Assembly: GCA_014728035.1 (NCBI GenBank)
Contig: WJMJ01000015.1
Span: 1 to 10,695, forward strand
Length of the DNA: 10,695 bases
DNA from: Promethearchaeota archaeon
GTDB lineage: Archaea; Asgardarchaeota; Thorarchaeia; Thorarchaeales; Thorarchaeaceae
Direction: 5' to 3'
A program made the translations under genes and the position numbers. Positions 246 to 10,695 of this stretch are shown piece by piece (the stretch's first letter is position 1; the number at the start of each line of letters is the position of its first letter). The notes under the pieces are model-generated. The model saw only the letters and a program-made list of their open reading frames with translations. It did not search any database and was not told the DNA's origin.

Positions 246-322
246 GGGTCTGTAGCTCAGTTGGTAAGAGCATGCGGCTCATAACCGCACGGTCGGGGGT
301 TCGAGTCCCTCCAGACCCACCA
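246..322 (+). tRNA. tRNA with CAT anticodon, most likely tRNA-Ile2 (lysidine type, reads AUA)
   Basis: Acceptor stem GGGTCTG/CAGACCC, discriminator A, encoded CCA at 320-322. Anticodon arm TGCGG-CTCATAA-CCGCA (CAT at 280-282); T-loop TTCGAGT. G1-C72 is paired and the anticodon stem lacks the three G-C pairs, so it is not an initiator. The acceptor stem and arm resemble bacterial Ile tRNAs. Confidence 0.93.
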
Positions 323-1556: not shown

Positions 1557-1936
1557 TTGGAAAGAAGCTGGCATCTCATCACAACAATATGGGAATTAGC
1601 ACACATGCATTGACTAGATTTCTTGAGCATTTATGTCTAAAAGAAAGAGGAACGTCACGTGAAGAGGTGATATCCATATTTTACAATTCGAGGAGAATAT
1701 CGCACAAGGAATTGTGCAAGATGGGGTTCAAGACCGCCTTTAATTATAGGCGCAATAGGGGAAAGTACACTTGGTATTTCAGGACATCCGTGCTGGGGAA
1801 AACTTTGATATTCGTAGTTGCAGAAGACAAACACGATAATTCAAATTTGGTTATCATAACCATCCTGGCGCACAACCAACAGAGTCTTATATATCAAGAA
1901 AGAGGTAGGGAACGTATACGCAGCATGTCGTCATGA
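1553..1936 (+). CDS. DUF4258-like / BECR-fold putative ribonuclease
   Basis: The N-terminal ISTHALTRFLE helix and the C-terminal LIFVVAED...NLVIITIL strands match the S-x-HA-x-x-R...VVITV pattern of DUF4258/RelE-like folds. Confidence 0.5.
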   Translation: MIGKKLASHHNNMGISTHALTRFLEHLCLKERGTSREEVISIFYNSRRISHKELCKMGFKTAFNYRRNRGKYTWYFRTSVLGKTLIFVVAEDKHDNSNLVIITILAHNQQSLIYQERGRERIRSMSS

Positions 1937-1964
1937 TATGATAGGACTACTCCACCCCTATACA

Positions 1965-2013
1965 CCACTACCGGTAGTATGTATACGTCAACTGACACCA
2001 CAATCGGTAGTGG
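1965..2013. promoter_or_regulatory. Pair of 16-bp palindromic boxes, cassette 1
   Basis: CCACTACCGGTAGTAT (1965-1980) and CCACAATCGGTAGTGG (1998-2013), 33 bp apart. Confidence 0.8.
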
Positions 2014-2019
2014 TGTATC

Positions 2020-2036
2020 TGGCACGATAGTTGCTA
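2020..2036 (+). promoter_or_regulatory. Sigma54-type (-24/-12) promoter P1
   Basis: TGGCACG-ATAG-TTGCTA, with GG at 2021-22 and GC at 2033-34 (canonical spacing). It is intergenic and upstream of AAGGAG and ATG2081. Confidence 0.85.
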
Positions 2037-2080
2037 TATAAGATATGTAGAATTTTCTACCCCCATAAAGGAGATTACCC

Positions 2081-2710
2081 ATGGCACGAAAGACAAAAGA
2101 TCCGCTTGCAGACCTTGGCAAATTGGCAGATACCCAGAAACAGCCAGAAAAGCCCAAAAATGGCAAGAAGACAGTAAATCTCGATCCAGCACCAGTCAAA
2201 GAGATGGTTGATGCTTGGGTCACAGCAGACAGACAACTCAAGGAAGCCAAGGCGGTCAAGGAGCAAGCTGAGGGAGAAATTAAGGATTACGCAGAGCCTC
2301 GTTGGAAGGAAGAATGCCGGAAAGATGGTACAGTCAAAAAGAGCATTCATGTGGGTGTGGTCACCATCTCCTACAAAAGCGGGAGTCAGATGTACAGTAG
2401 GGCATCGCTCAACGCAGATGCACTTTGTGAAGCCCTTGGTGAAAAAGAATACGACAAGCATTTTGTGGAAAAGGAAGGGCCATTCCAACTCACGGATGCG
2501 GCAACCAACGACAGCGCTTTTGTTGCTGATCTGGTCAAGCTGGTCCAAAAACATAATGGTGCCGGATATCTGACCCGATCCAAGACAGTCGTGCCCAAGG
2601 AAACCCTCTACGACATGCGTGTGCTGGAGCCGGATAATTATGCCAAGATCGAGAAAAAGCTTCACGAAGCAGGTGTCCGGGACCAGAAACCTACTTTCTC
2701 AGCACGATAA
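2081..2710 (+). CDS. Hypothetical protein (209 aa) with N-terminal coiled coil; first gene of the P1 operon
   Basis: Strong RBS (AAGGAG); contains no ATA or TTA codons; K/E/A-rich helix DRQLKEAKAVKEQAEGEIKDY. Confidence 0.9.
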   Translation: MARKTKDPLADLGKLADTQKQPEKPKNGKKTVNLDPAPVKEMVDAWVTADRQLKEAKAVKEQAEGEIKDYAEPRWKEECRKDGTVKKSIHVGVVTISYKSGSQMYSRASLNADALCEALGEKEYDKHFVEKEGPFQLTDAATNDSAFVADLVKLVQKHNGAGYLTRSKTVVPKETLYDMRVLEPDNYAKIEKKLHEAGVRDQKPTFSAR

Positions 2711-2719
2711 GGTGGATTT

Positions 2720-2998
2720 ATGAACAGCAAGCACAGCAAGCAAAGAGCGGTTGAGGCGCAAGAAATTATCCGCGACTTTTCCAATGATATGAACCAAGAC
2801 CTCCAAACGTTCATTGAATCAATGGCAAATGAGCACAGAACAATCCAACAGGCGTTCACGAATCTGTGTTTTGAATGGATAAAAAGATGCGCCAAGATGC
2901 ACAGTGAAAAGCAATTCGACCTTCGCAATGAATATTCGGTAAAAACCTGTGCTGAAATTGTCGAAAAGGTTGATGTGGGAAGATGCCCATTCATATAG
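2720..2998 (+). CDS. Conserved phage hypothetical protein (HRTxQQ...DxRNE...PFI type, 92 aa)
   Basis: RBS AAGGTGGA. The motifs EHRTIQQAF, FDLRNEYS and terminal PFI resemble a recurring phage hypothetical family (from memory). Confidence 0.85.
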   Translation: MNSKHSKQRAVEAQEIIRDFSNDMNQDLQTFIESMANEHRTIQQAFTNLCFEWIKRCAKMHSEKQFDLRNEYSVKTCAEIVEKVDVGRCPFI

Positions 2999-3010
2999 AT
3001 TGGGGGTTCC

Positions 3011-3643
3011 ATGGATATCCGGTTTGCCGACAAGCCCACCAGATCACAGAAGATATGCTTGCCCATGTTCGACAACGGCAAGCATATCGGATTATCAAAA
3101 TTAGATGGGTGGAGATGTCGCACCACAATCTATGCTGACGGAACGATCGACTTTCTTTCTAGCTCTGGTAAACGTCTCCCAGTATCTGAAAAAGTCAGAA
3201 ACGCCGTCCGTGCCATCCGTGACGCCGGGAGAGTACCTCTCGCCAGCCAGTTAGATGGCGAATGGATGAAACGAAGACCCGATTATGATGGTCCCGAATG
3301 CATCTATCTATTTGCACCAATGGTATTGGCCGGTGAATGGGTAGGTCATCTGCCATTTAAAGAAAGATGGGAGTGGATAAATAAATTGGAATTGCCAGTT
3401 GATGATTTGTCCATCAAGAAATCGGATCACATGCCAAATGAACCATTACTATTACCAGCATCAGCAAATTGTGAGTTAACCGAATTCTTTGACATCCATA
3501 TCAACGTGCCCAGAACAGAAGGTGTTGTGATCTATAAGGCAGAGGGCAAGATGTATGGCAATCCCAGAGAACCAAAGAAAAGCAGAGATATGTACAAGAT
3601 AAAATATCGGGAAGGCCATGATGGCAGAACAAAGATTGAATAG
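3011..3643 (+). CDS. Stand-alone ATP-dependent ligase adenylation (nucleotidyltransferase) domain, no OB fold
   Basis: Motif I KLDGWR, III LDGEW, IIIa YLFA, IV EGVVI and V MYKIK are present. The protein ends 12 aa after motif V. Confidence 0.85.
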   Translation: MDIRFADKPTRSQKICLPMFDNGKHIGLSKLDGWRCRTTIYADGTIDFLSSSGKRLPVSEKVRNAVRAIRDAGRVPLASQLDGEWMKRRPDYDGPECIYLFAPMVLAGEWVGHLPFKERWEWINKLELPVDDLSIKKSDHMPNEPLLLPASANCELTEFFDIHINVPRTEGVVIYKAEGKMYGNPREPKKSRDMYKIKYREGHDGRTKIE

Positions 3644-3660
3644 CTCAGCAGGAGAAGACA

Positions 3661-4107
3661 ATGAAAAATAATTATGACAAGTTTACTTGCCCAATTTGTG
3701 GAGATAAGGTCAGTAATGCCGGTGCTGCACGCACATCCCACCTAAGAAAGCACGTTAGAGAGGGAAAAGTCAAGGAATTCAGTGATGATGGGCATCTGTA
3801 CTTCGTATCGGTAAAGGATAACGAGATAATCCGCGTGGGCGAACCGACAAAATCATCCTCTCCCCATCAATGGATGTCATTTCACACTACAATGAAATGT
3901 GACCCACGCAAACGAATCACTGCCAAATTCTGTGATGAAAATGTATTTATCGAATGCAGAAATTGTGGCAAGAGCCACAAAGCTATACCAGCTACGTTCG
4001 AGGAAAGGGACAAACACAGATTCTACAAGATTAATTGTCCTGATTGTGATTCTTTGACTCTATTTCCAACAAGATTTGTCAAGAAGACTGGTACAGTAAC
4101 CGTGTAA
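3661..4107 (+). CDS. Zinc-finger protein (N-terminal C2H2 plus C-terminal C4 ribbon)
   Basis: CPIC-x13-HLRKH near the N-terminus, then CRNC...CPDC. RBS AGGAG. Confidence 0.85.
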   Translation: MKNNYDKFTCPICGDKVSNAGAARTSHLRKHVREGKVKEFSDDGHLYFVSVKDNEIIRVGEPTKSSSPHQWMSFHTTMKCDPRKRITAKFCDENVFIECRNCGKSHKAIPATFEERDKHRFYKINCPDCDSLTLFPTRFVKKTGTVTV

Positions 4108-4173
4108 TTCCCCCCTATTCTATGCTATCGACATATATCGTGATGATAGGATTCTTTGTATCGTCGCCGCATA

Positions 4174-4221
4174 TACCCACCAGTAGTATAATTTTCAAAG
4201 ATCCCATACAACCGGTAGTAT
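4174..4221. promoter_or_regulatory. Pair of 16-bp palindromic boxes, cassette 2
   Basis: TACCCACCAGTAGTAT (4174-4189) and ATACAACCGGTAGTAT (4206-4221), 32 bp apart. Confidence 0.8.
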
Positions 4222-4227
4222 TATTGG

Positions 4228-4244
4228 TGGCACGCTAGTTGCTA
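4228..4244 (+). promoter_or_regulatory. Sigma54-type (-24/-12) promoter P2
   Basis: TGGCACG-CTAG-TTGCTA, with GG at 4229-30 and GC at 4241-42, upstream of GGGAGGA and ATG4269. Confidence 0.85.
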
Positions 4245-4268
4245 GAAAACAGAAGATGGGAGGACTCT

Positions 4269-4643
4269 ATGGGAATGTATGAAGAAAAATTGAACGAGGT
4301 TTTGCAAGAGATCAAATTCGAGTTTGGCACTGGGTTGTGGATAGAGCCACAGGGCAAAGTGCACAAACTTCCCAATGATCAAATCCATGCCAAATGGGCC
4401 AAAACGCATAATATGAATATGGACAAGATGCTCAAAGATGGGTGGGCAAGAGTGAGGGTTGTGGCTGACAGTACAATAGGCGAAAGCTACGACAAAGACC
4501 AGATCTTCAACGTTCATGAAATCGCCAAACGATATGGGACTACATACATCACATTTGTTTGGTACCGAGATAATATGCCAAAGAAATATGAGTATACTCT
4601 TGGAGATCCAGTGCCGGTTTTGGAAGACAAGGAGGACGCATGA
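4269..4643 (+). CDS. Hypothetical protein, FGTG...H..WA...GW.R family (124 aa); paralog of 8215-8676
   Basis: GGGAGGA at 4258-4264 precedes ATG4269; the track TTG start at 4239 lies inside the promoter. ATGA overlap with the AAA gene. Confidence 0.85.
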   Translation: MGMYEEKLNEVLQEIKFEFGTGLWIEPQGKVHKLPNDQIHAKWAKTHNMNMDKMLKDGWARVRVVADSTIGESYDKDQIFNVHEIAKRYGTTYITFVWYRDNMPKKYEYTLGDPVPVLEDKEDA

Positions 4644-7024
4644 ACAACTTTTTGGTGCCTTATCTGAAAGCAGGATATCCAGTTATCTACCTGCTCACTG
4701 CCGAAGAAAACAGGGCGGAATTGACAACGCTCAAGGCAGCACAGGAATGTGGCCGCAATCTGAAGATCTGGTCGCACACAGATGGGTTTTTCGGTGTAGG
4801 CGAAGACGACGATGAAGATTCCACGGAAGATCCTGTCGATGCACTTGAGGTTATCAAGGCATCCCCAGATAAGCAGATGTTTGTATTCCGTGATTTTCAT
4901 CATTTCCTCAAAGTGCCCAAGATTCAGCGTCTTGTTAGGGACATTGCCAAGAAATTCCGACAAACACAATGTTGTATGGTCATCATAAGCCCTATCAACC
5001 AAATCCCACCAGAACTGGAGAGAGAAATCACGCTGGTCGAATTTGAGTTGCCAACGAGGAAAGAAATCGAGCAGACATTCGACAACCTATATAAAGCAAA
5101 CAAGAAATCAATCGGCACAATCGACGACAGCGAAAAAGAGCGCATCATCCAAGCTGCAATGGGACTCACCACCGATGAAGCCGAGGCCGCTTTTGCTAAA
5201 GCCATTGTGGAACGGAACATGAACCAATTGGATACCCCAATATCCAAGATGGTGCTCGGAGAGAAAGCTGCAGCAGTCAGAAAGTCAGGTATTCTTGAAT
5301 ATTTTGAGGCCAAGGAAACAATGGGTGATATTGGTGGCCTTGAAAATCTCAAGAAATGGCTACAAATGAGAAGCAAGGCATTCAGCACCAAGGCACGTGA
5401 ATTTGGATTGCCAATGCCTCGCGGTATTCTACTTGCGGGGATTCCTGGTTGCGTTGCGGCGGGTACGAAAATCATATATAAAAGGGGAAAGAGGCACGGC
5501 GGTCGCACTCTCAATATTGAAGAATTATATGCAAAATTTAATAACATTAGAAAAGGATATGATGGTGGTCCTTCGTGGGATCATACAATACCAACATTTG
5601 CACAATCATGGGATCAAGAGACTGGAAGGATGATATTCGCTGAAATCAGTCATGTTTTGAAAAAGGGTGAAAAAACTTGTATTAGAATCACAACTGATGA
5701 TGCTGGTTACGTCGAGGTCACCAAAGATCATCCTATACTAATGGCAGATGGAGAATTTTGCGAGGCAAGTGATATTATTATTGGTGACAAACTTCTGGTT
5801 CGAGGTTCAATGCTACCAAAACCCAAAAAGAATAGAAAGCAAAAGAAAAAAGCAAAAAGAGCCAGCATTGATAGTCTACCAATTTGGTATAAATCTGGAT
5901 CTGTTAAAAAGGTCAATACGTCATCTGGTGTTTATGAATACAAAAGACAACGACGATCAAGGTTGGTGATCGAAGCGCACATGAATGGGTTATCTTTTGA
6001 TGAATATGTCGAGATACTTCGTAATTGTCCAAAAGAATCAGAATCTATGCGTGTTCTTGGTCCCGAATTTGATGTGCATCATATAGATGAAGATGCAATG
6101 AATGATAACATTTCCAATCTAATGGTAATGCTATCTGAAAAGCACAAAGATCTGCATCACCATCATGATGAAAGCAAATTCGATATCGAATACACCAGAG
6201 AATCTACCGTGGTCAAAATAGAAGATGTTGGCGTACACGAAACTTTTGATATCTCCATAAAAGAGCCAGGACCACACAATTTTTCTACTAGTAATGGTAT
6301 TATTTTGCATAATTGTGGAAAGAGCCTAAGTGCAAAAGCCACAAGTAATATTCTTGGTATCCCTCTTATTCGTTTTGATGTAGGACGGATTTTTGGTGGT
6401 TTGGTGGGACAGAGTGAGGAAAATATGAGATCCGCCATCCAGACAATTGAAGCAATCGGGAATTGCGTCTGCTGGGTGGACGAAATGGACAAGGCATTTG
6501 CTGGTATGGGTGGTGGTTCTACTGATGGAGGAACAAGCCAGCGTGTATTTGGTAATTTCATCACATGGATGCAGGAAAAAACAGCGCCAGTATTCATCGT
6601 TGCCACAGTAAACCGCATCGATGCTCTACCACCAGAACTATTGCGCAAGGGAAGATTTGATGAAATTTTCTTTGTTGGCCTACCATCAGATGACGAGAGG
6701 GAGGATATTCTCAAGATTCATGTCAACAAATATGGACGTGATGCCGATAAATTCAAGCTCGATGAATGTGTGAATAAATCAACGGATTTCAGTGGTGCAG
6801 AGCTTGAGGAAGCTGTGATCAGTGGTCTATACCATGCATTCTACGAGGATAGGGATCTTGAATCCAAGGATATTTTAAAAGCAATTAAGACCACCAACCC
6901 CCTTGCCAAGAGTCGATCACGCCAGCTTGAGGATATGGCAAAATGGGCAACCGGGAATGCAGTAAATGCAAGTGTGGTCAAGAAGGAAACCAAGACGAGT
7001 GCCGGAAGGCAACTGGATATCTAA
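4640..7024 (+). CDS. Ycf46-like AAA+ ATPase (794-aa precursor; 506 aa after intein removal)
   Basis: Degenerate N-terminal AAA-like domain (YPVIYLLTAEENR, FRDFH, IPPELER). Also IGGLENLKKWL, spliced Walker A GIPGCGKS, Walker B WVDEMDK and the SRH region ATVN...LPPELLRKGRFDEIFFVGLP. Confidence 0.93.
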   Translation: MNNFLVPYLKAGYPVIYLLTAEENRAELTTLKAAQECGRNLKIWSHTDGFFGVGEDDDEDSTEDPVDALEVIKASPDKQMFVFRDFHHFLKVPKIQRLVRDIAKKFRQTQCCMVIISPINQIPPELEREITLVEFELPTRKEIEQTFDNLYKANKKSIGTIDDSEKERIIQAAMGLTTDEAEAAFAKAIVERNMNQLDTPISKMVLGEKAAAVRKSGILEYFEAKETMGDIGGLENLKKWLQMRSKAFSTKAREFGLPMPRGILLAGIPGCVAAGTKIIYKRGKRHGGRTLNIEELYAKFNNIRKGYDGGPSWDHTIPTFAQSWDQETGRMIFAEISHVLKKGEKTCIRITTDDAGYVEVTKDHPILMADGEFCEASDIIIGDKLLVRGSMLPKPKKNRKQKKKAKRASIDSLPIWYKSGSVKKVNTSSGVYEYKRQRRSRLVIEAHMNGLSFDEYVEILRNCPKESESMRVLGPEFDVHHIDEDAMNDNISNLMVMLSEKHKDLHHHHDESKFDIEYTRESTVVKIEDVGVHETFDISIKEPGPHNFSTSNGIILHNCGKSLSAKATSNILGIPLIRFDVGRIFGGLVGQSEENMRSAIQTIEAIGNCVCWVDEMDKAFAGMGGGSTDGGTSQRVFGNFITWMQEKTAPVFIVATVNRIDALPPELLRKGRFDEIFFVGLPSDDEREDILKIHVNKYGRDADKFKLDECVNKSTDFSGAELEEAVISGLYHAFYEDRDLESKDILKAIKTTNPLAKSRSRQLEDMAKWATGNAVNASVVKKETKTSAGRQLDI
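5450..6313 (+). mobile_element. Intein (288 aa) with HNH-type homing endonuclease, inserted in the Walker A motif
   Basis: Starts CVAAGTKI after GIPG; block B VTKDHPIL; block F ETFDISI; ends GIILHN followed by +1 Cys (CGKS). The internal DVHHIDEDAMNDNISNL...H...HH segment is an HNH motif. Confidence 0.93.
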
Positions 7025-7036
7025 AAGGAGGACAAC

Positions 7037-7498
7037 ATGAGTCATGTCGCTGTGGTAGATGTGGAAATCAAGGATCTCAAGGCGTTGGAAAAGGCGTGCG
7101 AGAATCTCAATTTGAAATTCAATTGGAACCAGCAGACCTACAAATGGTATGGGCGAAGTGTGGGTGATTACCCTCTACCCAATGGCTTCAAGAAGGAAGA
7201 TTTGGGCAAATGTGACCACGCCATTTCTATACCCAATAACAGCAAGGCATATGAGATTGGCGTCTGCGAGAGCAGGACCAGCAAGAAAGATTCCCATTGC
7301 CTTTTGTGGGATTTCTGGCAGGGTGGTTTTGGGATGCAGAAGATCGTGGGAGACAACTGCAGCAATCTGACCCACGAATATGCCAAGGAAGTTGCGAGGA
7401 AGGAAGTTTCAAAATTGGCTCAGGCGCAAAACTGGACAGTGACAGAGGATTACAACGAGCAAACCGGCGAAACCACAATCAGGCTTCGCAAGTACTAG
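7037..7498 (+). CDS. DUF1257 (Ycf35-like) family protein
   Basis: MSHVAVVDVEIKDLKALEKAC, YEIGV and LLWDFW; typical position next to a Ycf46-like ATPase; RBS AGGAGG. Confidence 0.85.
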   Translation: MSHVAVVDVEIKDLKALEKACENLNLKFNWNQQTYKWYGRSVGDYPLPNGFKKEDLGKCDHAISIPNNSKAYEIGVCESRTSKKDSHCLLWDFWQGGFGMQKIVGDNCSNLTHEYAKEVARKEVSKLAQAQNWTVTEDYNEQTGETTIRLRKY

Positions 7499-7506
7499 GA
7501 GATGGT

Positions 7507-7791
7507 GTGGATATTACGATCAGAATAGACAAATCCGAAAGAGACTATCTGCATCTTTCAATATCACGAGGCACCGAAGTTAAGGCGACCGTCGTGGTAA
7601 GCCTAAAAAGAGATGGGTGGTATGTGCGTAGCGTAAAGGGTCGTGGTATCCTACACCAACAGATACTCCAAACGGCATTGTGGGAGTTAGAAAGCAACCA
7701 GAAATACCGTGATGCCGTTGAATTGATGTCAAAATCAGACACTCTTTATGTTTCCACCAAGGAAAGAGGAGAAGAGTCATGCAAGAAATGA
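7507..7791 (+). CDS. Hypothetical protein (94 aa, GTG start)
   Basis: AGGAG at 7497-7501 precedes GTG7507 (MDITIRIDK...). It fills the gap between DUF1257 and DUF2997. Confidence 0.7.
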   Translation: MDITIRIDKSERDYLHLSISRGTEVKATVVVSLKRDGWYVRSVKGRGILHQQILQTALWELESNQKYRDAVELMSKSDTLYVSTKERGEESCKK

Positions 7792-7973
7792 AGGTCATTA
7801 TTTCTAAAAATGGGCAAGTCACCATTGATGTAGATGGGATCAAGGGTTCCTCATGCAAGACTATGACAAAAGCACTCGAAAAGAGTCTTGGAATCACAGT
7901 CAGTGATAAGAAAAAGACCGAATTCTATGAGGAACAGCAAGTCGATAACCAACAGAATCTGGGGAACTACTAA
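7779..7973 (+). CDS. DUF2997 family protein
   Basis: KVIISKNGQVTIDVDGIKGSSC...TKALEKSLG...KKTEFYE matches the family pattern; RBS GAGGAG. Confidence 0.88.
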   Translation: MQEMKVIISKNGQVTIDVDGIKGSSCKTMTKALEKSLGITVSDKKKTEFYEEQQVDNQQNLGNY

Positions 7974-8218
7974 TGGATATCATCATATCTGGAGATCAAA
8001 TCAGATATATTTATTCTGATGATTTACTTGGTCTCACCAATCATGGCACATCAACGGTAAAAAGAGCAAGCCATGTTGAACCAGATGACAATGGCGGGTG
8101 GAAAGCAGATTTGGGGCCAGTTGGTGGCCCTATTCTGGGGCCATTTAAAAAGAGGTCAGATGCACTGGAAGGGGAGTTAACATGGCTAACGAATCATGGA
8201 GTTCCAACGCCAAAATGA
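7973..8218 (+). CDS. Conserved small protein (RASHVEP...WxADL.PVGGP.LGPF..RS.AL), a neighbour of AAA-DUF1257-DUF2997 clusters
   Basis: TAATG-coupled to DUF2997. The motif is recalled from similar clusters, e.g. in Planctomycetota (from memory, unverified). Confidence 0.85.
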   Translation: MDIIISGDQIRYIYSDDLLGLTNHGTSTVKRASHVEPDDNGGWKADLGPVGGPILGPFKKRSDALEGELTWLTNHGVPTPK

Positions 8219-8676
8219 ACATTGATCATAATACAAAGATCATGCTCCAAAATAGTCAGTTGAGAGAAGCACAGGGCAAATCAGGGGATGATCTTATCAA
8301 TGCATTTGGAACTGGATACTTTGTCGATAGAGATGGTCAATTATATAATATTGGTAAAGCCAAAACACACGAGGAGTGGGCAAATCAACGAGATACAACT
8401 ACCAATGATCTTCTTGATCGTGGTTGGACTAGGATAAGAAATTTTGGTGCATTTGATTACATACAGGGCGATTCACGCACACTGGACAACATATGGTATC
8501 TCATTGAAATTGCTGACAAAGTAAACAAAAACCGAATTATTTACACATATGACAGAAATCGTATTGAATTAATAAAACATGATGATGACAAATGGAGAGC
8601 AATAAATGGCAAAGAGATCAAAGACATCATCGAGTGTAAAATCATTCCTGAGAGCTTTACCAGCAAGATTTACTAA
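8215..8676 (+). CDS. Hypothetical protein, FGTG...H..WA...GW.R family (153 aa); paralog of 4269-4643
   Basis: ATGA overlap at 8215-8218; aligns without gaps to the 4269 protein over 45 aa. Confidence 0.85.
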   Translation: MNIDHNTKIMLQNSQLREAQGKSGDDLINAFGTGYFVDRDGQLYNIGKAKTHEEWANQRDTTTNDLLDRGWTRIRNFGAFDYIQGDSRTLDNIWYLIEIADKVNKNRIIYTYDRNRIELIKHDDDKWRAINGKEIKDIIECKIIPESFTSKIY

Positions 8677-8803
8677 GCATGAATTCGGCCCAGAAGCAGC
8701 GACGCATGGTTATGCGATCAAAGATGATGGCAAAATGGTCGGTTTGATCTTGATTGATGATGGAATAATCCATAAATTTGGTGATATATGGACGTGCAAA
8801 TAA
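8606..8803 (+). CDS. Hypothetical protein (65 aa)
   Basis: GGAG at 8594-8597 precedes ATG8606, and the stop abuts the next RBS. It overlaps the upstream gene by 71 nt, so the start is uncertain. Confidence 0.5.
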   Translation: MAKRSKTSSSVKSFLRALPARFTKHEFGPEAATHGYAIKDDGKMVGLILIDDGIIHKFGDIWTCK

Positions 8804-8812
8804 GGAATTGAA

Positions 8813-9517
8813 ATGAAATATTTATGCAATGACGATCAGTCAAACAAATTCTGGGAATATAAGATCAATGGCACATCAGTAACCGTGAAATGGGGCAGAG
8901 TGGGCCTATCGGGGCAGTCCAAAGTACATAATTTCAGTTCTTCTGATGATATGCAAAAATTCATCAATAAAAAAGTCGCAGAAAAAATGCGCAAGAATTA
9001 TGCACCAGTTGATGACAAAAAGCTAAAGGAAGAGGTGAAAACCGCACAACAGTTGGGTCATCAATATAAAATATCACGTATGTTGTTTGTGAATCAGAAG
9101 GACAATAAACTCACCCATCTAGCCAAATATGATCCAAAGAAGTGGGTCTATGTTGAGATCCTAAATTCATGGAAGAAAGACATCACAAGGCTTCTGTTAT
9201 CCAAGAATGAATCATACGAGATTACTGGTGGGGTGACAGAAGGATACAAATCCATCACCTATGGGCAGAAATCCCCAACATCTGGTAATTTTGTTAATGC
9301 CGTCCGTGGTATATTGCGCCGATTGTCAGAACAGGTGGTTGAAGTGGTTAAGGCAAGAATCACATTATCTGGTGCAAGAAAATTGGATATGGGAGGCGAC
9401 GAACAAGAATATGCAACTGCTGCTTTGGATGCCTTAGAATCCATGAATATTACCAACATGGACAAGAGTGTGGTGTCAAAATTCGCCACCATGGGAACAC
9501 GAGTGTTGGATTTATGA
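8813..9517 (+). CDS. WGR-domain protein (234 aa)
   Basis: N-terminal SNKFWEY...VTVKWGRVGLSGQ...KKVAEKMRKNY is a WGR domain; the C-terminal part is unassigned. Confidence 0.9.
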   Translation: MKYLCNDDQSNKFWEYKINGTSVTVKWGRVGLSGQSKVHNFSSSDDMQKFINKKVAEKMRKNYAPVDDKKLKEEVKTAQQLGHQYKISRMLFVNQKDNKLTHLAKYDPKKWVYVEILNSWKKDITRLLLSKNESYEITGGVTEGYKSITYGQKSPTSGNFVNAVRGILRRLSEQVVEVVKARITLSGARKLDMGGDEQEYATAALDALESMNITNMDKSVVSKFATMGTRVLDL

Positions 9518-9657
9518 AGTGCCTAATGTGCCAAAACACAATCGACGTAGGACAAGGACATTATTTATTACTGGGACCAAAGCCCACATATCATGATGAC
9601 ACCATGAAAAGATCACGCCCACACATTACCCATCCGTCGTATATTACGCCCAAATAA
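9514..9657 (+). CDS. Small MKCxxC ORF (47 aa), possibly a truncated zinc ribbon
   Basis: ATGA-coupled. MKCLMCQNTIDVGQGHYLLLGPKPTYHDDT... has only one CxxC, and its 3' end runs over the distal box of cassette 3. Confidence 0.4.
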   Translation: MKCLMCQNTIDVGQGHYLLLGPKPTYHDDTMKRSRPHITHPSYITPK

Positions 9658-9675
9658 CCATACTACCCATGGTAT
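9627..9675. promoter_or_regulatory. Pair of 16-bp palindromic boxes, cassette 3
   Basis: TACCCATCCGTCGTAT (9627-9642) and ATACTACCCATGGTAT (9660-9675), 33 bp apart. Confidence 0.75.
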
Positions 9676-9681
9676 ATCTTC

Positions 9682-9702
9682 TGGAACGCAATTTGCTATA
9701 AT
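9682..9702 (+). promoter_or_regulatory. Sigma54-type promoter P3, overlapping a sigma70 extended -10
   Basis: TGGAACG-CAAT-TTGCTA (GG at 9683-84, GC at 9695-96). TG-C-TATAAT lies at 9694-9702. Confidence 0.8.
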
Positions 9703-9734: not shown

Positions 9735-10628
9735 ATGAGTCAACAGACAAAACAATCACTCATCGCAACGCTCACAGAAGATAGCAAAGATTTCGAGGTC
9801 TTGGGTATGGTGGCATGGTGGAACGTGAGATCGGTTGAAATCAGCACTGAAAACCTATCCAGTCTTCTCACTTCGTGTGGATTGGACCCTAAACATGCCC
9901 GTGAACATAATTATCGGTCATCTTTCATCCGGGCGCTTCGCAATATGGAAGAAAAACGCATTATCAGGATGGTGGAGGAAGATAAGAATCGAATCGTCTA
10001 CCAGTTCACGGCAGAAAACAAGACAGACGGCAATGAATTCAAGTTGTCATATGATCCGGAAACGCTGGTGTCAATTAACAAAGAAGCATATAGGTCTACT
10101 GGTGATATCGATCAGGCCACGACGGGGAGAGATGATATTCGATCGAAGTTGGTTGCGTCTTTCAATATGGAGAAGAATACATACCGATCTGGTGACATCA
10201 CAAGAATGCTCAAGCGGATTTTTGATAAGGAAGCTGACCTCGTGTGTTTGCGCGAGAATGGTGGGGTATATTTCATTCCATCAACCCATGCCCATGTGGT
10301 ACAGAAAGTATCACAAATGATGGATGAATTGGGTAATTCATCCTTCGAATATTTACCATTGCCAAATGTATCTTCATGCCGTTCGCTGCTTAAAAATGCA
10401 GTGACTGATGAAATGGAACTGGCCATGCAAAAGCTGCATGACGAACTACAGAATTCTGACCAGATGACAGACAAGAAGGCAAAACATCGATTGTCGAAAA
10501 TCCGTGAAATGCAAAAACGAATCAACCAATACGAAGAGGTGTTGGATCAAAAGGTCACAAAACACCTCCAGGGTGGATTCAAAAAGATGGAACAGCATAT
10601 CATGTCATCTCGTGTGCTAGATATCTAG
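9735..10628 (+). CDS. DUF6744/DUF3150-like protein (297 aa)
   Basis: LGMVAWWNV near the N-terminus, LRENGGVYFIP motif and a helical C-terminal coiled coil; RBS AGGAG. The family assignment is from memory. Confidence 0.7.
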   Translation: MSQQTKQSLIATLTEDSKDFEVLGMVAWWNVRSVEISTENLSSLLTSCGLDPKHAREHNYRSSFIRALRNMEEKRIIRMVEEDKNRIVYQFTAENKTDGNEFKLSYDPETLVSINKEAYRSTGDIDQATTGRDDIRSKLVASFNMEKNTYRSGDITRMLKRIFDKEADLVCLRENGGVYFIPSTHAHVVQKVSQMMDELGNSSFEYLPLPNVSSCRSLLKNAVTDEMELAMQKLHDELQNSDQMTDKKAKHRLSKIREMQKRINQYEEVLDQKVTKHLQGGFKKMEQHIMSSRVLDI

Positions 10629-10636
10629 GAGATTTT

Positions 10637-10695
10637 ATGACGGAACAGCCTATGTTCCCAATGATCAGTGGTAGTTTATCGGAATCGCCACTACA
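10637..10695 (+). CDS. Start of next gene (partial, MTEQPMFPMISGSLSESPL...)
   Basis: AGGAG at 10627-10631 precedes ATG10637; the frame stays open to the window edge. Confidence 0.65.
   Translation, partial: MTEQPMFPMISGSLSESPL

Follow-up and report, generated by a model that had tools for sequence, protein, structure and literature searches.

A repeated sigma-54-type promoter cassette with twin, phased palindromes in a bacteriophage co-binned with a Thorarchaeota genome

Closed complexes of sigma-54 holoenzyme are silent without an AAA+ activator, which is required for promoter opening, and the classical enhancers of this promoter class lie at about -80 to -150. In the E. coli promoter glnAp2, the dimer sites of the NtrC-type enhancer are located at about -140 and -108 and thus about 32 bp from each other, and at sigma-70 promoters of CRP class III the two sites lie at -41.5 and about -72.5. 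To our knowledge, the use of sigma-54 by phages is documented for essentially one phage, YuA, in which its mechanism is unstudied. This Pseudomonas aeruginosa phage has been reported to be strictly dependent on host sigma-54 (Ceyssens et al. 2008, as cited in PMC5053324 and PMC10914365); it serves as the example that such use is rare and not unprecedented (PMC5053324), and one of its promoters, P015, is associated in these reports with a sigma-54-like region (PMC10914365; PMC5053324). Proteins bound inside sigma-54 enhancer loops have also been found to act in a manner that depends on helical phase (Brunwasser-Meirom et al. 2016, PMC4740811). In this study, we analyzed contig WJMJ01000015.1 of assembly GCA_014728035.1, the whole of which (10,695 nucleotides) is called the window below, and in which three gene units are headed by a common cassette composed of two 16-bp palindromic boxes, distal box A and proximal box B, in fixed phase with a sigma-54-type -24/-12 core.

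The cassette resembles glnAp2 in having a TGGCAC-N5-TTGC promoter preceded by twin palindromes that are separated by three helical turns, whereas the sites here, at about -73 and -41, abut the holoenzyme footprint, and no NtrC-family protein is encoded in the DNA recovered. We know of no enhancer whose sites lie nearer to the core, and the box sequence is unlike any enhancer-binding-protein site of which we are aware. The two dimer-site positions relative to the predicted start are the same as those of CRP class III promoters; unlike these, however, most of the cores have no usable -10 hexamer and carry a sigma-54 signature instead. As in YuA, no sigma-54 and, as far as reported for YuA, no activator is encoded in the recovered DNA of the phage that carries the cassette, and sigma-54-like promoters stand beside sigma-70 promoters. 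The two phages differ in that six units here are headed by a common cassette whose two phased palindromes adjoin the core, whereas one such promoter is described for YuA in these sources, and in that the dependence on host sigma-54 was reported for YuA, whereas here we infer it from sequence. The original prediction knew of no described phage programme with this layout; YuA limits the statement as far as the use of sigma-54 is concerned, although these sources do not describe the present layout for it. A further likeness is to loops assisted by IHF or quenched by bound proteins (PMC4740811), since the boxes at -41 and -73 are placed between a third element, ATCATGAT, at about -112 and the core, where ATCATGAT as the enhancer is a guess; the natural examples in that work are host qrr genes, whereas those considered here are phage operons.

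Six cassettes in one phage

The three cassettes of the window, named P1 to P3, are composed of the following elements, in which the boxes are compared with the palindrome ATACTACCGGTAGTAT.

1930..1937 (+): P1 distal element GTCATGAT, 7/8 of the palindrome ATCATGAT, 90 nt upstream of TGG, at about -112
1965..1980 (+): P1 box A CCACTACCGGTAGTAT, 14/16 to the palindrome, centre at about -73
1998..2013 (+): P1 box B CCACAATCGGTAGTGG, centre at about -40.5, 6 nt before TGG
2020..2036 (+): P1 core TGGCACGATAGTTGCTA, sigma-54-type -24/-12 element, predicted start at about 2046
2070-2073 (+): P1 Shine-Dalgarno (SD) sequence GGAG, followed by ATG at 2081
4137..4144 (+): P2 distal element ATCGTGAT, 7/8, 91 nt upstream of TGG
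4174..4189 (+): P2 box A TACCCACCAGTAGTAT
4206..4221 (+): P2 box B ATACAACCGGTAGTAT, 15/16 to the palindrome
4228..4244 (+): P2 core TGGCACGCTAGTTGCTA, predicted start at about 4254, SD GGGAGGA, ATG at 4269
9590..9597 (+): P3 distal element ATCATGAT, a perfect 8-bp palindrome, 92 nt upstream of TGG
9627..9642 (+): P3 box A TACCCATCCGTCGTAT
9660..9675 (+): P3 box B ATACTACCCATGGTAT, 13/16 to the palindrome
9682..9698 (+): P3 core TGGAACGCAATTTGCTA, predicted start at about 9708, ATG at 9735

The geometry that the original prediction had given for these cassettes was recovered throughout. The pattern TGG(C/A)ACG-N4-TTGCTA starts at 2020, 4228 and 9682, the offset from box B (starts 1998, 4206 and 9660) to the core is exactly 22 in each case, and box A, which starts at 1965, 4174 and 9627, precedes box B by 33, 32 and 33 bp. 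The identities listed for the boxes at 1965, 4206 and 9660 were reproduced by hand, as was the identity of 13/16 between box A of P2 and box A of P3, and a symmetrised matrix of the boxes returned exactly ATACTACCGGTAGTAT as its consensus. For the pattern TGGMACG-N4-TTGCW, three sites were counted in the window, compared with a mean expectation of 0.01 when the sequence was shuffled 200 times, and a scan of the window for sigma-70 promoters and terminators revealed no enrichment. The box palindromes were also considered as terminator hairpins and rejected, as they have no loop and no T-run and are located upstream of the start.

The window represents the entire contig C122 of a metagenome-assembled genome (MAG) of 4.33 Mb in 173 contigs. 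Chaining C122(+), C97(+) and C70(-) through exact 141-bp end overlaps gave a joined phage sequence of 134,769 bp with both ends open, whose coordinates are called joined positions below. A search of the 4.33-Mb assembly with the whole-cassette pattern gave four matches, all of which belong to this virus and three of which are those of the window. Scanning the phage contigs for further cassettes yielded this fourth full copy and two diverged ones, at which the core spacing holds as well, and the proposed phage regulon is extended from three to six units by the following sites.

Joined 15931, in the tail of C70, same strand as P1-P3: P4, a full cassette heading a DksA/TraR-type gene
Joined 95324 (-): P5 CTGGCATGGTGCTTGC, diverged, 39 nt before the ATG of the gene following the portal gene
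Joined 91522 (-): P6 CTGGAATACTACTTGC, diverged, heading a small zinc-ribbon gene

The four consecutive units of P1-P4 span about 17 kb, from joined 2.0 kb to 19.4 kb, while P5 and P6 are found in the structural region, P5 just downstream of three sigma-70 promoters. With a matrix built from the same six sites, these scored 21-25 bits, and the next best site in the 134.8 kb scored 12.9. TGG.A at -24 and TTGC at -12 are invariant in all six at sigma-54 spacing, and two of the six cores are perfect TGGCACG-N4-TTGCT; the TATA-like bases that follow TTGC in P1-P4 are not kept in P5 and P6. Every one of the six cassettes is intergenic and co-oriented with its downstream gene, with 25-52 nt from TTGC to ATG and the SD sequence inside the predicted leader.

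The offset of the proximal box from TGG is identical in P1-P4 (centre at about -40.5), and by our reading the diverged proximal boxes of P5 and P6 appear to align in the same register. The distal box, centred at about -72.5 to -73 from the predicted start, is spaced from the proximal one by 33, 32, 33 and 33 bp centre to centre in P1-P4, about 32 bp in P6 and 22 bp in P5; thus, with the exception of P5, two dimer sites about three turns apart lie on one helical face. Palindromic and in strict register with the core, the boxes have the appearance of dimeric-regulator sites, as had been suggested. The ATCATGAT element is located 89-92 nt upstream of TGG in P1-P4, perfect in P3 and P4 and 7/8 in P1 and P2, and in P5 a CATGAT is found nearer to the core than this element is in P1-P4. 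One extra pair of boxes, ATACAACTCATAGTAT and TTACAACTCGTAGTAG, 19 bp apart at joined 68165-68199 (+) (starts 68165 and 68184; L058:14100-14270), has no core and heads a gene with a lipoprotein-like signal peptide; judging from this pair, the box regulator may also act at a sigma-70 promoter.

Among P1-P4, the identity is 76% in the core, 69% in box B and 73% in box A, compared with 38% in the inter-box spacer and 43% in the 5 bases upstream of the core, and the lengths of these spacers are fixed. Because the motifs are alike while the fixed-length spacers diverge, these data indicate selection on the motifs and not a recent duplication.

The cassette is also conserved in a closer relative, as a 1.7-kb Logan contig (L069) carries a gene 77% identical to the gene downstream of P5, and its upstream region aligns with the P5 region at 80% identity. 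Within this alignment, box B' (13/13), CTGGCATG (8/8) and TTGC (4/4) are kept, whereas the 6-nt gap before TGG keeps only 2/6, and the sole change in the core falls in its N spacer. The relative has thus preserved the box, the -24 element and the -12 element, whereas the intervening gaps have changed. Two of the three tandem sigma-70 promoters are visible in L069 too, with their hexamers kept and the 17-nt spacer rewritten.

Outside this phage and its relative, the cassette was not recovered. Among 400 genomes of the phylum of the MAG, with one mismatch allowed, the whole-cassette pattern gave only chance-like matches and no cassette; exact matching in 2.9 million IMG/VR contigs gave 13 matches, all coding-sequence coincidences; and the strict box-plus-core pattern had 0 matches in JGI metagenome contigs. 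The RecA-module relatives L062-L064 have no cassettes, which is uninformative because the same module is cassette-free in this phage too.

A bacteriophage in an archaeal bin

The MAG is archaeal in its marker genes, with four loci for TATA-binding protein (TBP), and a profile search did not find Sigma70_r2 in it; the DNA-binding (Sigma54_DBD) and core-binding (Sigma54_CBD) domains of sigma-54 were found in neither the MAG nor the phage. The contamination of the bin is 8.5%. The joined sequence encodes tail and packaging proteins, namely a terminase large subunit with inteins, a gp20-type portal, a baseplate wedge protein and collagen-like tail fibres, together with NrdD and a DnaB-type helicase, and its portal, terminase and baseplate are T4-like. 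Further products are a family A polymerase (PolA), a 5'-3' exonuclease, the uracil-DNA glycosylase UDG, a NAD-dependent ligase (LigA), a peptide deformylase (Pep_deformylase), a GT9 heptosyltransferase, a capsule-synthesis protein (Capsule_synth), two CheY-like receiver proteins, an XRE-type helix-turn-helix (HTH) protein, a DksA/TraR zinc finger and an NrdR-like zinc ribbon. The RecA of the phage is genuine, as its match to E. coli RecA has an E value of 2.6e-114 compared with 1e-13 to phage UvsX. Its nearest cellular homologues are 55-60% identical, and because they are scattered across many bacterial phyla, no host phylum can be named from RecA.

Within one 323-bp intergenic region, at joined 95321-95643 (-), which corresponds to L057:3180-3500 (+), three tandem sigma-70 promoters were found directly upstream of cassette P5, two of them perfect TTGACA-17-TATAAT and one TTGACA-17-TAAAAT. 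No spacer-like (CRISPR-type) match was detected between the virus and the rest of the MAG, and no physical contig link leads from the virus to the archaeal contigs. Because of its bacterial-type genes, its consensus sigma-70 promoters and this lack of a link to archaeal contigs, we regard the virus as a bacteriophage. The window most likely belongs to a bacteriophage of at least 134.8 kb that was co-binned with the Thorarchaeota MAG, and we infer that its host is a bacterium using canonical sigma-70 promoters.

The best matches of the portal were Microcystis phage Mel-JY01 (35% identity) and Flavobacterium phage immuto (32%). Among the genome contigs no portal relatives were found, those in IMG/VR are 26-29% identical and hence too distant, and a megablast search of the window against INPHARED gave no match. 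A second, related phage is present in the bin as fragments on C152, C140, C27, C74 and C131, with 35-60% protein identity; its two TGGCAY-N5-TTGC matches both fall inside coding sequence.

Readings of the cassette and proposed control

On balance, we favour the interpretation that the cores form a promoter class, cTGG(C/A)A(C/T)-N5-TTGC, which would be read by the sigma-54 holoenzyme of the bacterial host. The core was rightly described as a sigma-54-type element, since the consensus is matched at the positions that are invariant in all six copies and conserved in L069. Because ten conserved positions stand at the exact consensus spacing, we prefer sigma-54 to a likeness arisen by convergence, which appears unlikely. 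The option of a phage-encoded sigma-54, also raised in the original prediction, found no support, as no rpoN was detected in either the recovered 134.8 kb or the MAG; likewise, a search for enhancer-binding proteins in the phage DNA and the MAG returned neither a GAFTGA motif nor an RpoN box.

Several observations weigh against a sigma-54 promoter class. Both rpoN and an enhancer-binding ATPase (GAFTGA, RpoN box) are absent from the recovered phage DNA and the bin, and a search for an AAA activator in the 134.8 kb, whose ends are open, gave only weak cross-matches to a RarA/MgsA-like protein. The boxes, centred at about -41 and -73, lie far nearer to the start than classical enhancers do; with centres at about -40.5 and -72.5, they do not lie about 80-150 bp or more upstream as NtrC-type sites do. 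In three cores, A replaces C at -22. Moreover, the relatives of the AAA/DUF6744/WGR/LigA module, L065-L068 (37-49% identity), have no such cassettes, and the only genome physically associated with the phage by binning is archaeal.

The alternative that survives best is that a phage-specific factor, either a sigma-like protein or one appropriating sigma-70 in the style of T4 MotA/AsiA, reads the core, while the boxes bind a partner activator and the sigma-54 likeness is convergent. We consider it rather unlikely. It agrees with the finding of neither an rpoN nor an activator gene and with a motif confined to this phage and a single close relative, although convergence on ten positions with the exact sigma-54 spacing would be very unlikely. 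Many open reading frames (ORFs) have no known family and the genome is incomplete at both ends, which also speaks for such a factor; on the other side, no sigma-70-family domain is detectable in the phage, and no RNA polymerase family is represented among its ORFs of at least 70 aa. One relative that shares the AAA/DUF6744/WGR/LigA module does encode its own Sigma70_r4 protein (390 aa, with internal zinc-ribbon motifs, at L068:5041-6213), but this sigma-like protein has no homologue in the phage studied here. The readings other than sigma-54 and a phage-specific factor are unlikely even when taken jointly.

Among these, an extended -10 promoter of sigma-70 (TGC plus a TATAAT-like hexamer) without a -35 element, served by a dimeric activator at the class II (-41.5) and class I (-72.5) positions, is improbable. 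The phage clearly uses host sigma-70 elsewhere, the box centres at -40.5 and -72.5 fit the classical positions of sigma-70 activators, and P3 reads TGCTATAAT; yet the would-be hexamers of the six sites are TATATA, TAGAAA, TATAAT, TATACA, GATACA and AGTGTG, with T at -7 in one of six, and P6 is without any hexamer. In L069, furthermore, GATACA of P5 has become GGTACA, by which the A at -11 is lost to G while TGG and TTGC are intact, and an extended -10 element gives no role to the invariant TGG.A at -26 to -22.

Very improbable is a virus of the Thorarchaeota archaeon itself, in which the TTGCTATA portion would serve as a BRE/TATA promoter and the boxes would form an upstream activating sequence, comparable to the two-site Ptr2 arrangement of Methanocaldococcus. 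Four TBP loci are present in the MAG, sigma factors are not, and a TATA-like sequence directly follows TTGC in P1-P4, but P5 and P6 have no TATA at that place, and a start placed about 25 nt past the TATA would, in P2 and P4, hit the ATG and leave a strong GGAGGA upstream of the transcript. The initial reading of TTGCTATATAAG as a BRE/TATA box, taken from the archaeal MAG, was rejected on these grounds (P5/P6 and the SD position of P2/P4) and on the gene content, which is bacterial (RecA and not RadA, peptide deformylase, DnaB, heptosyltransferase). The presence of a second related phage in the same bin would suit an archaeal virus; on the other side stand the consensus sigma-70 promoters conserved in the relative, the missing CRISPR-like match and physical link to archaeal contigs, and the 8.5% contamination of the bin.

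It is hardly credible that the cassettes are not promoters but sites for partition, replication or recombination, or remnants of a duplicated segment, for although fixed-spacing palindrome repeats are also seen in iteron and partition regions and one extra box pair (joined 68165, 68184) has no core, six of six cassettes are intergenic, on the coding strand and at promoter distance from SD and ATG, their spacers are unrelated in sequence yet fixed in length, and the sites are dispersed at operon heads instead of being clustered.

If sigma-54 holoenzyme reads the cores, the promoters would be gated by a phage-specific dimeric DNA-binding protein occupying both boxes on one helical face. This protein might contact the complex of holoenzyme and activator directly, or it might shape or block a short loop between the closed complex and an ATPase activator bound upstream, possibly at ATCATGAT. 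In one variant, the box protein would itself be a short-range activator or co-activator; in another, the activator, perhaps that of the host, would bind upstream, possibly at ATCATGAT near -112, while the box protein at -73 and -41 would bend or stiffen the loop, comparable to IHF or to the phase-dependent 'quenchers' described for both synthetic and natural sigma-54 enhancers (PMC4740811). Judged from its position at classical enhancer distance, ATCATGAT may be the actual enhancer, a guess from position alone, and in that case the likely role of the boxes changes. Because the register of the proximal box is strict, the box protein would probably have to face the polymerase or the activator, and a simple occluding repressor is disfavoured, since its site would be expected over the -24/-12 region. 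The expected outcome would be a tightly off, switch-like class of genes that follows the sigma-70 early promoters. The motifs and their phasing, their restriction to this phage, their conservation in a relative and the bacterial nature of the phage are shown by these data, whereas sigma-54 dependence, the activator and the sign and identity of the box-binding protein are proposals.

More speculatively, and rather doubtfully, the box protein could be a phage-encoded promoter-proximal activator, possibly not of the classical GAFTGA AAA+ kind, that switches on sigma-54 holoenzyme from its fixed sites at -41 and -73 without long-range looping. If this is true, such an activator would represent a new way to activate or hijack an enhancer-dependent sigma factor, by which a large phage makes its middle/late switch. 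A TraR/DksA-type protein is encoded by the first gene of P4. In Pseudomonas, ppGpp together with DksA favours sigma-54 transcription through a shifted competition among sigma factors, and a link between this P4 gene and sigma competition is offered as a lead, not as a result.

Genes of the regulon and its meaning

The units downstream of the window cassettes contain the following genes.

2081..4107 (+): P1 unit, encoding a 209-aa protein, a 92-aa protein, a ligase-like nucleotidyltransferase and a zinc-finger protein
3011-3643 (+): OB-less ligase-like nucleotidyltransferase of the P1 unit
3661-4107 (+): 148-aa zinc-finger protein of the P1 unit, with a C2H2-like finger at its start (CPIC...HLRKH)
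4269..9517 (+): P2 unit, encoding a 124-aa protein, a Ycf46-like AAA ATPase, DUF1257-like and DUF2997 proteins, others and a WGR-domain protein
4640-7024 (+): Ycf46-like AAA ATPase of the P2 unit, with an HNH intein
8813-9517 (+): WGR-domain protein of the P2 unit
9735..10695 (+): start of the P3 unit, with a DUF6744 protein at 9735-10628

The P3 unit runs on through C97, where it encodes the NAD-dependent DNA ligase, into the tail of C70 and up to cassette P4. The 148-aa zinc-finger protein, encoded by the last gene before P2, is a weak candidate for a DNA-binding regulator, and searches with it gave nothing clear. The first genes of P1 and P2 and the gene immediately upstream of P1 matched no Pfam or PHROG family; by eye only, the gene upstream of P1 is toxin-like and the first P1 gene Gam-like.

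Two tRNA genes and several unusual proteins were observed in addition. The tRNA-Met/Ile(CAU) at window positions 246-322 has an encoded CCA and resembles a tRNA of the archaeal contig C25 (81% identity over 65 nt), a match that we take as general tRNA similarity; a 31-nt piece of the phage tRNA-Met, scanned against genomes as a hint to the host, had 0 matches. The tRNA at 963-1040 is Leu(UAA) according to ARAGORN, but its variable arm is short (type I, 5 nt), positions 1 and 72 form a G1-U72 wobble, and CCA is encoded; this is odd for a leucine tRNA, and it may be a phage tRNA with altered identity. The terminase large subunit of 1384 aa (L056:14928-19082) matches terminase families at its N-terminal and, separately, at its C-terminal part, and an endonuclease-type match lies in between, an interruption that we read as probable intein insertions, and a separate terminase/endonuclease-like ORF of 683 aa is located at L056:11476-13527. 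Long poly-serine tracts occur in two large proteins (476 and 763 aa; L006:4685-8423 (+)), which adjoin a phage block of glycosyl-, sulfo- and methyltransferases.

For work on Asgard archaea, the presence in an Asgard MAG of a 135-kb bacteriophage and of fragments of a second phage means that any claim of an 'Asgard virus' or an 'Asgard gene' based on these contigs would be wrong.

What is particular to this phage is a regulon of six units built on one cassette, in which promoter-proximal, phased twin operators are joined by a third element at enhancer distance, and this regulon sits in a large phage that also carries consensus sigma-70 promoters. The regulon includes the gene next to the portal gene as well as accessory, ligase and AAA+ genes that make up a block of 17 kb. 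Sigma-54 promoters, which are silent until an ATPase activator opens them, are ideal tight switches. If the sigma-54 reading is confirmed, the cassette would reveal the way in which a phage couples a portion of its programme to host signalling, and it would provide a compact, well-phased natural template for studies of short-range sigma-54 control.

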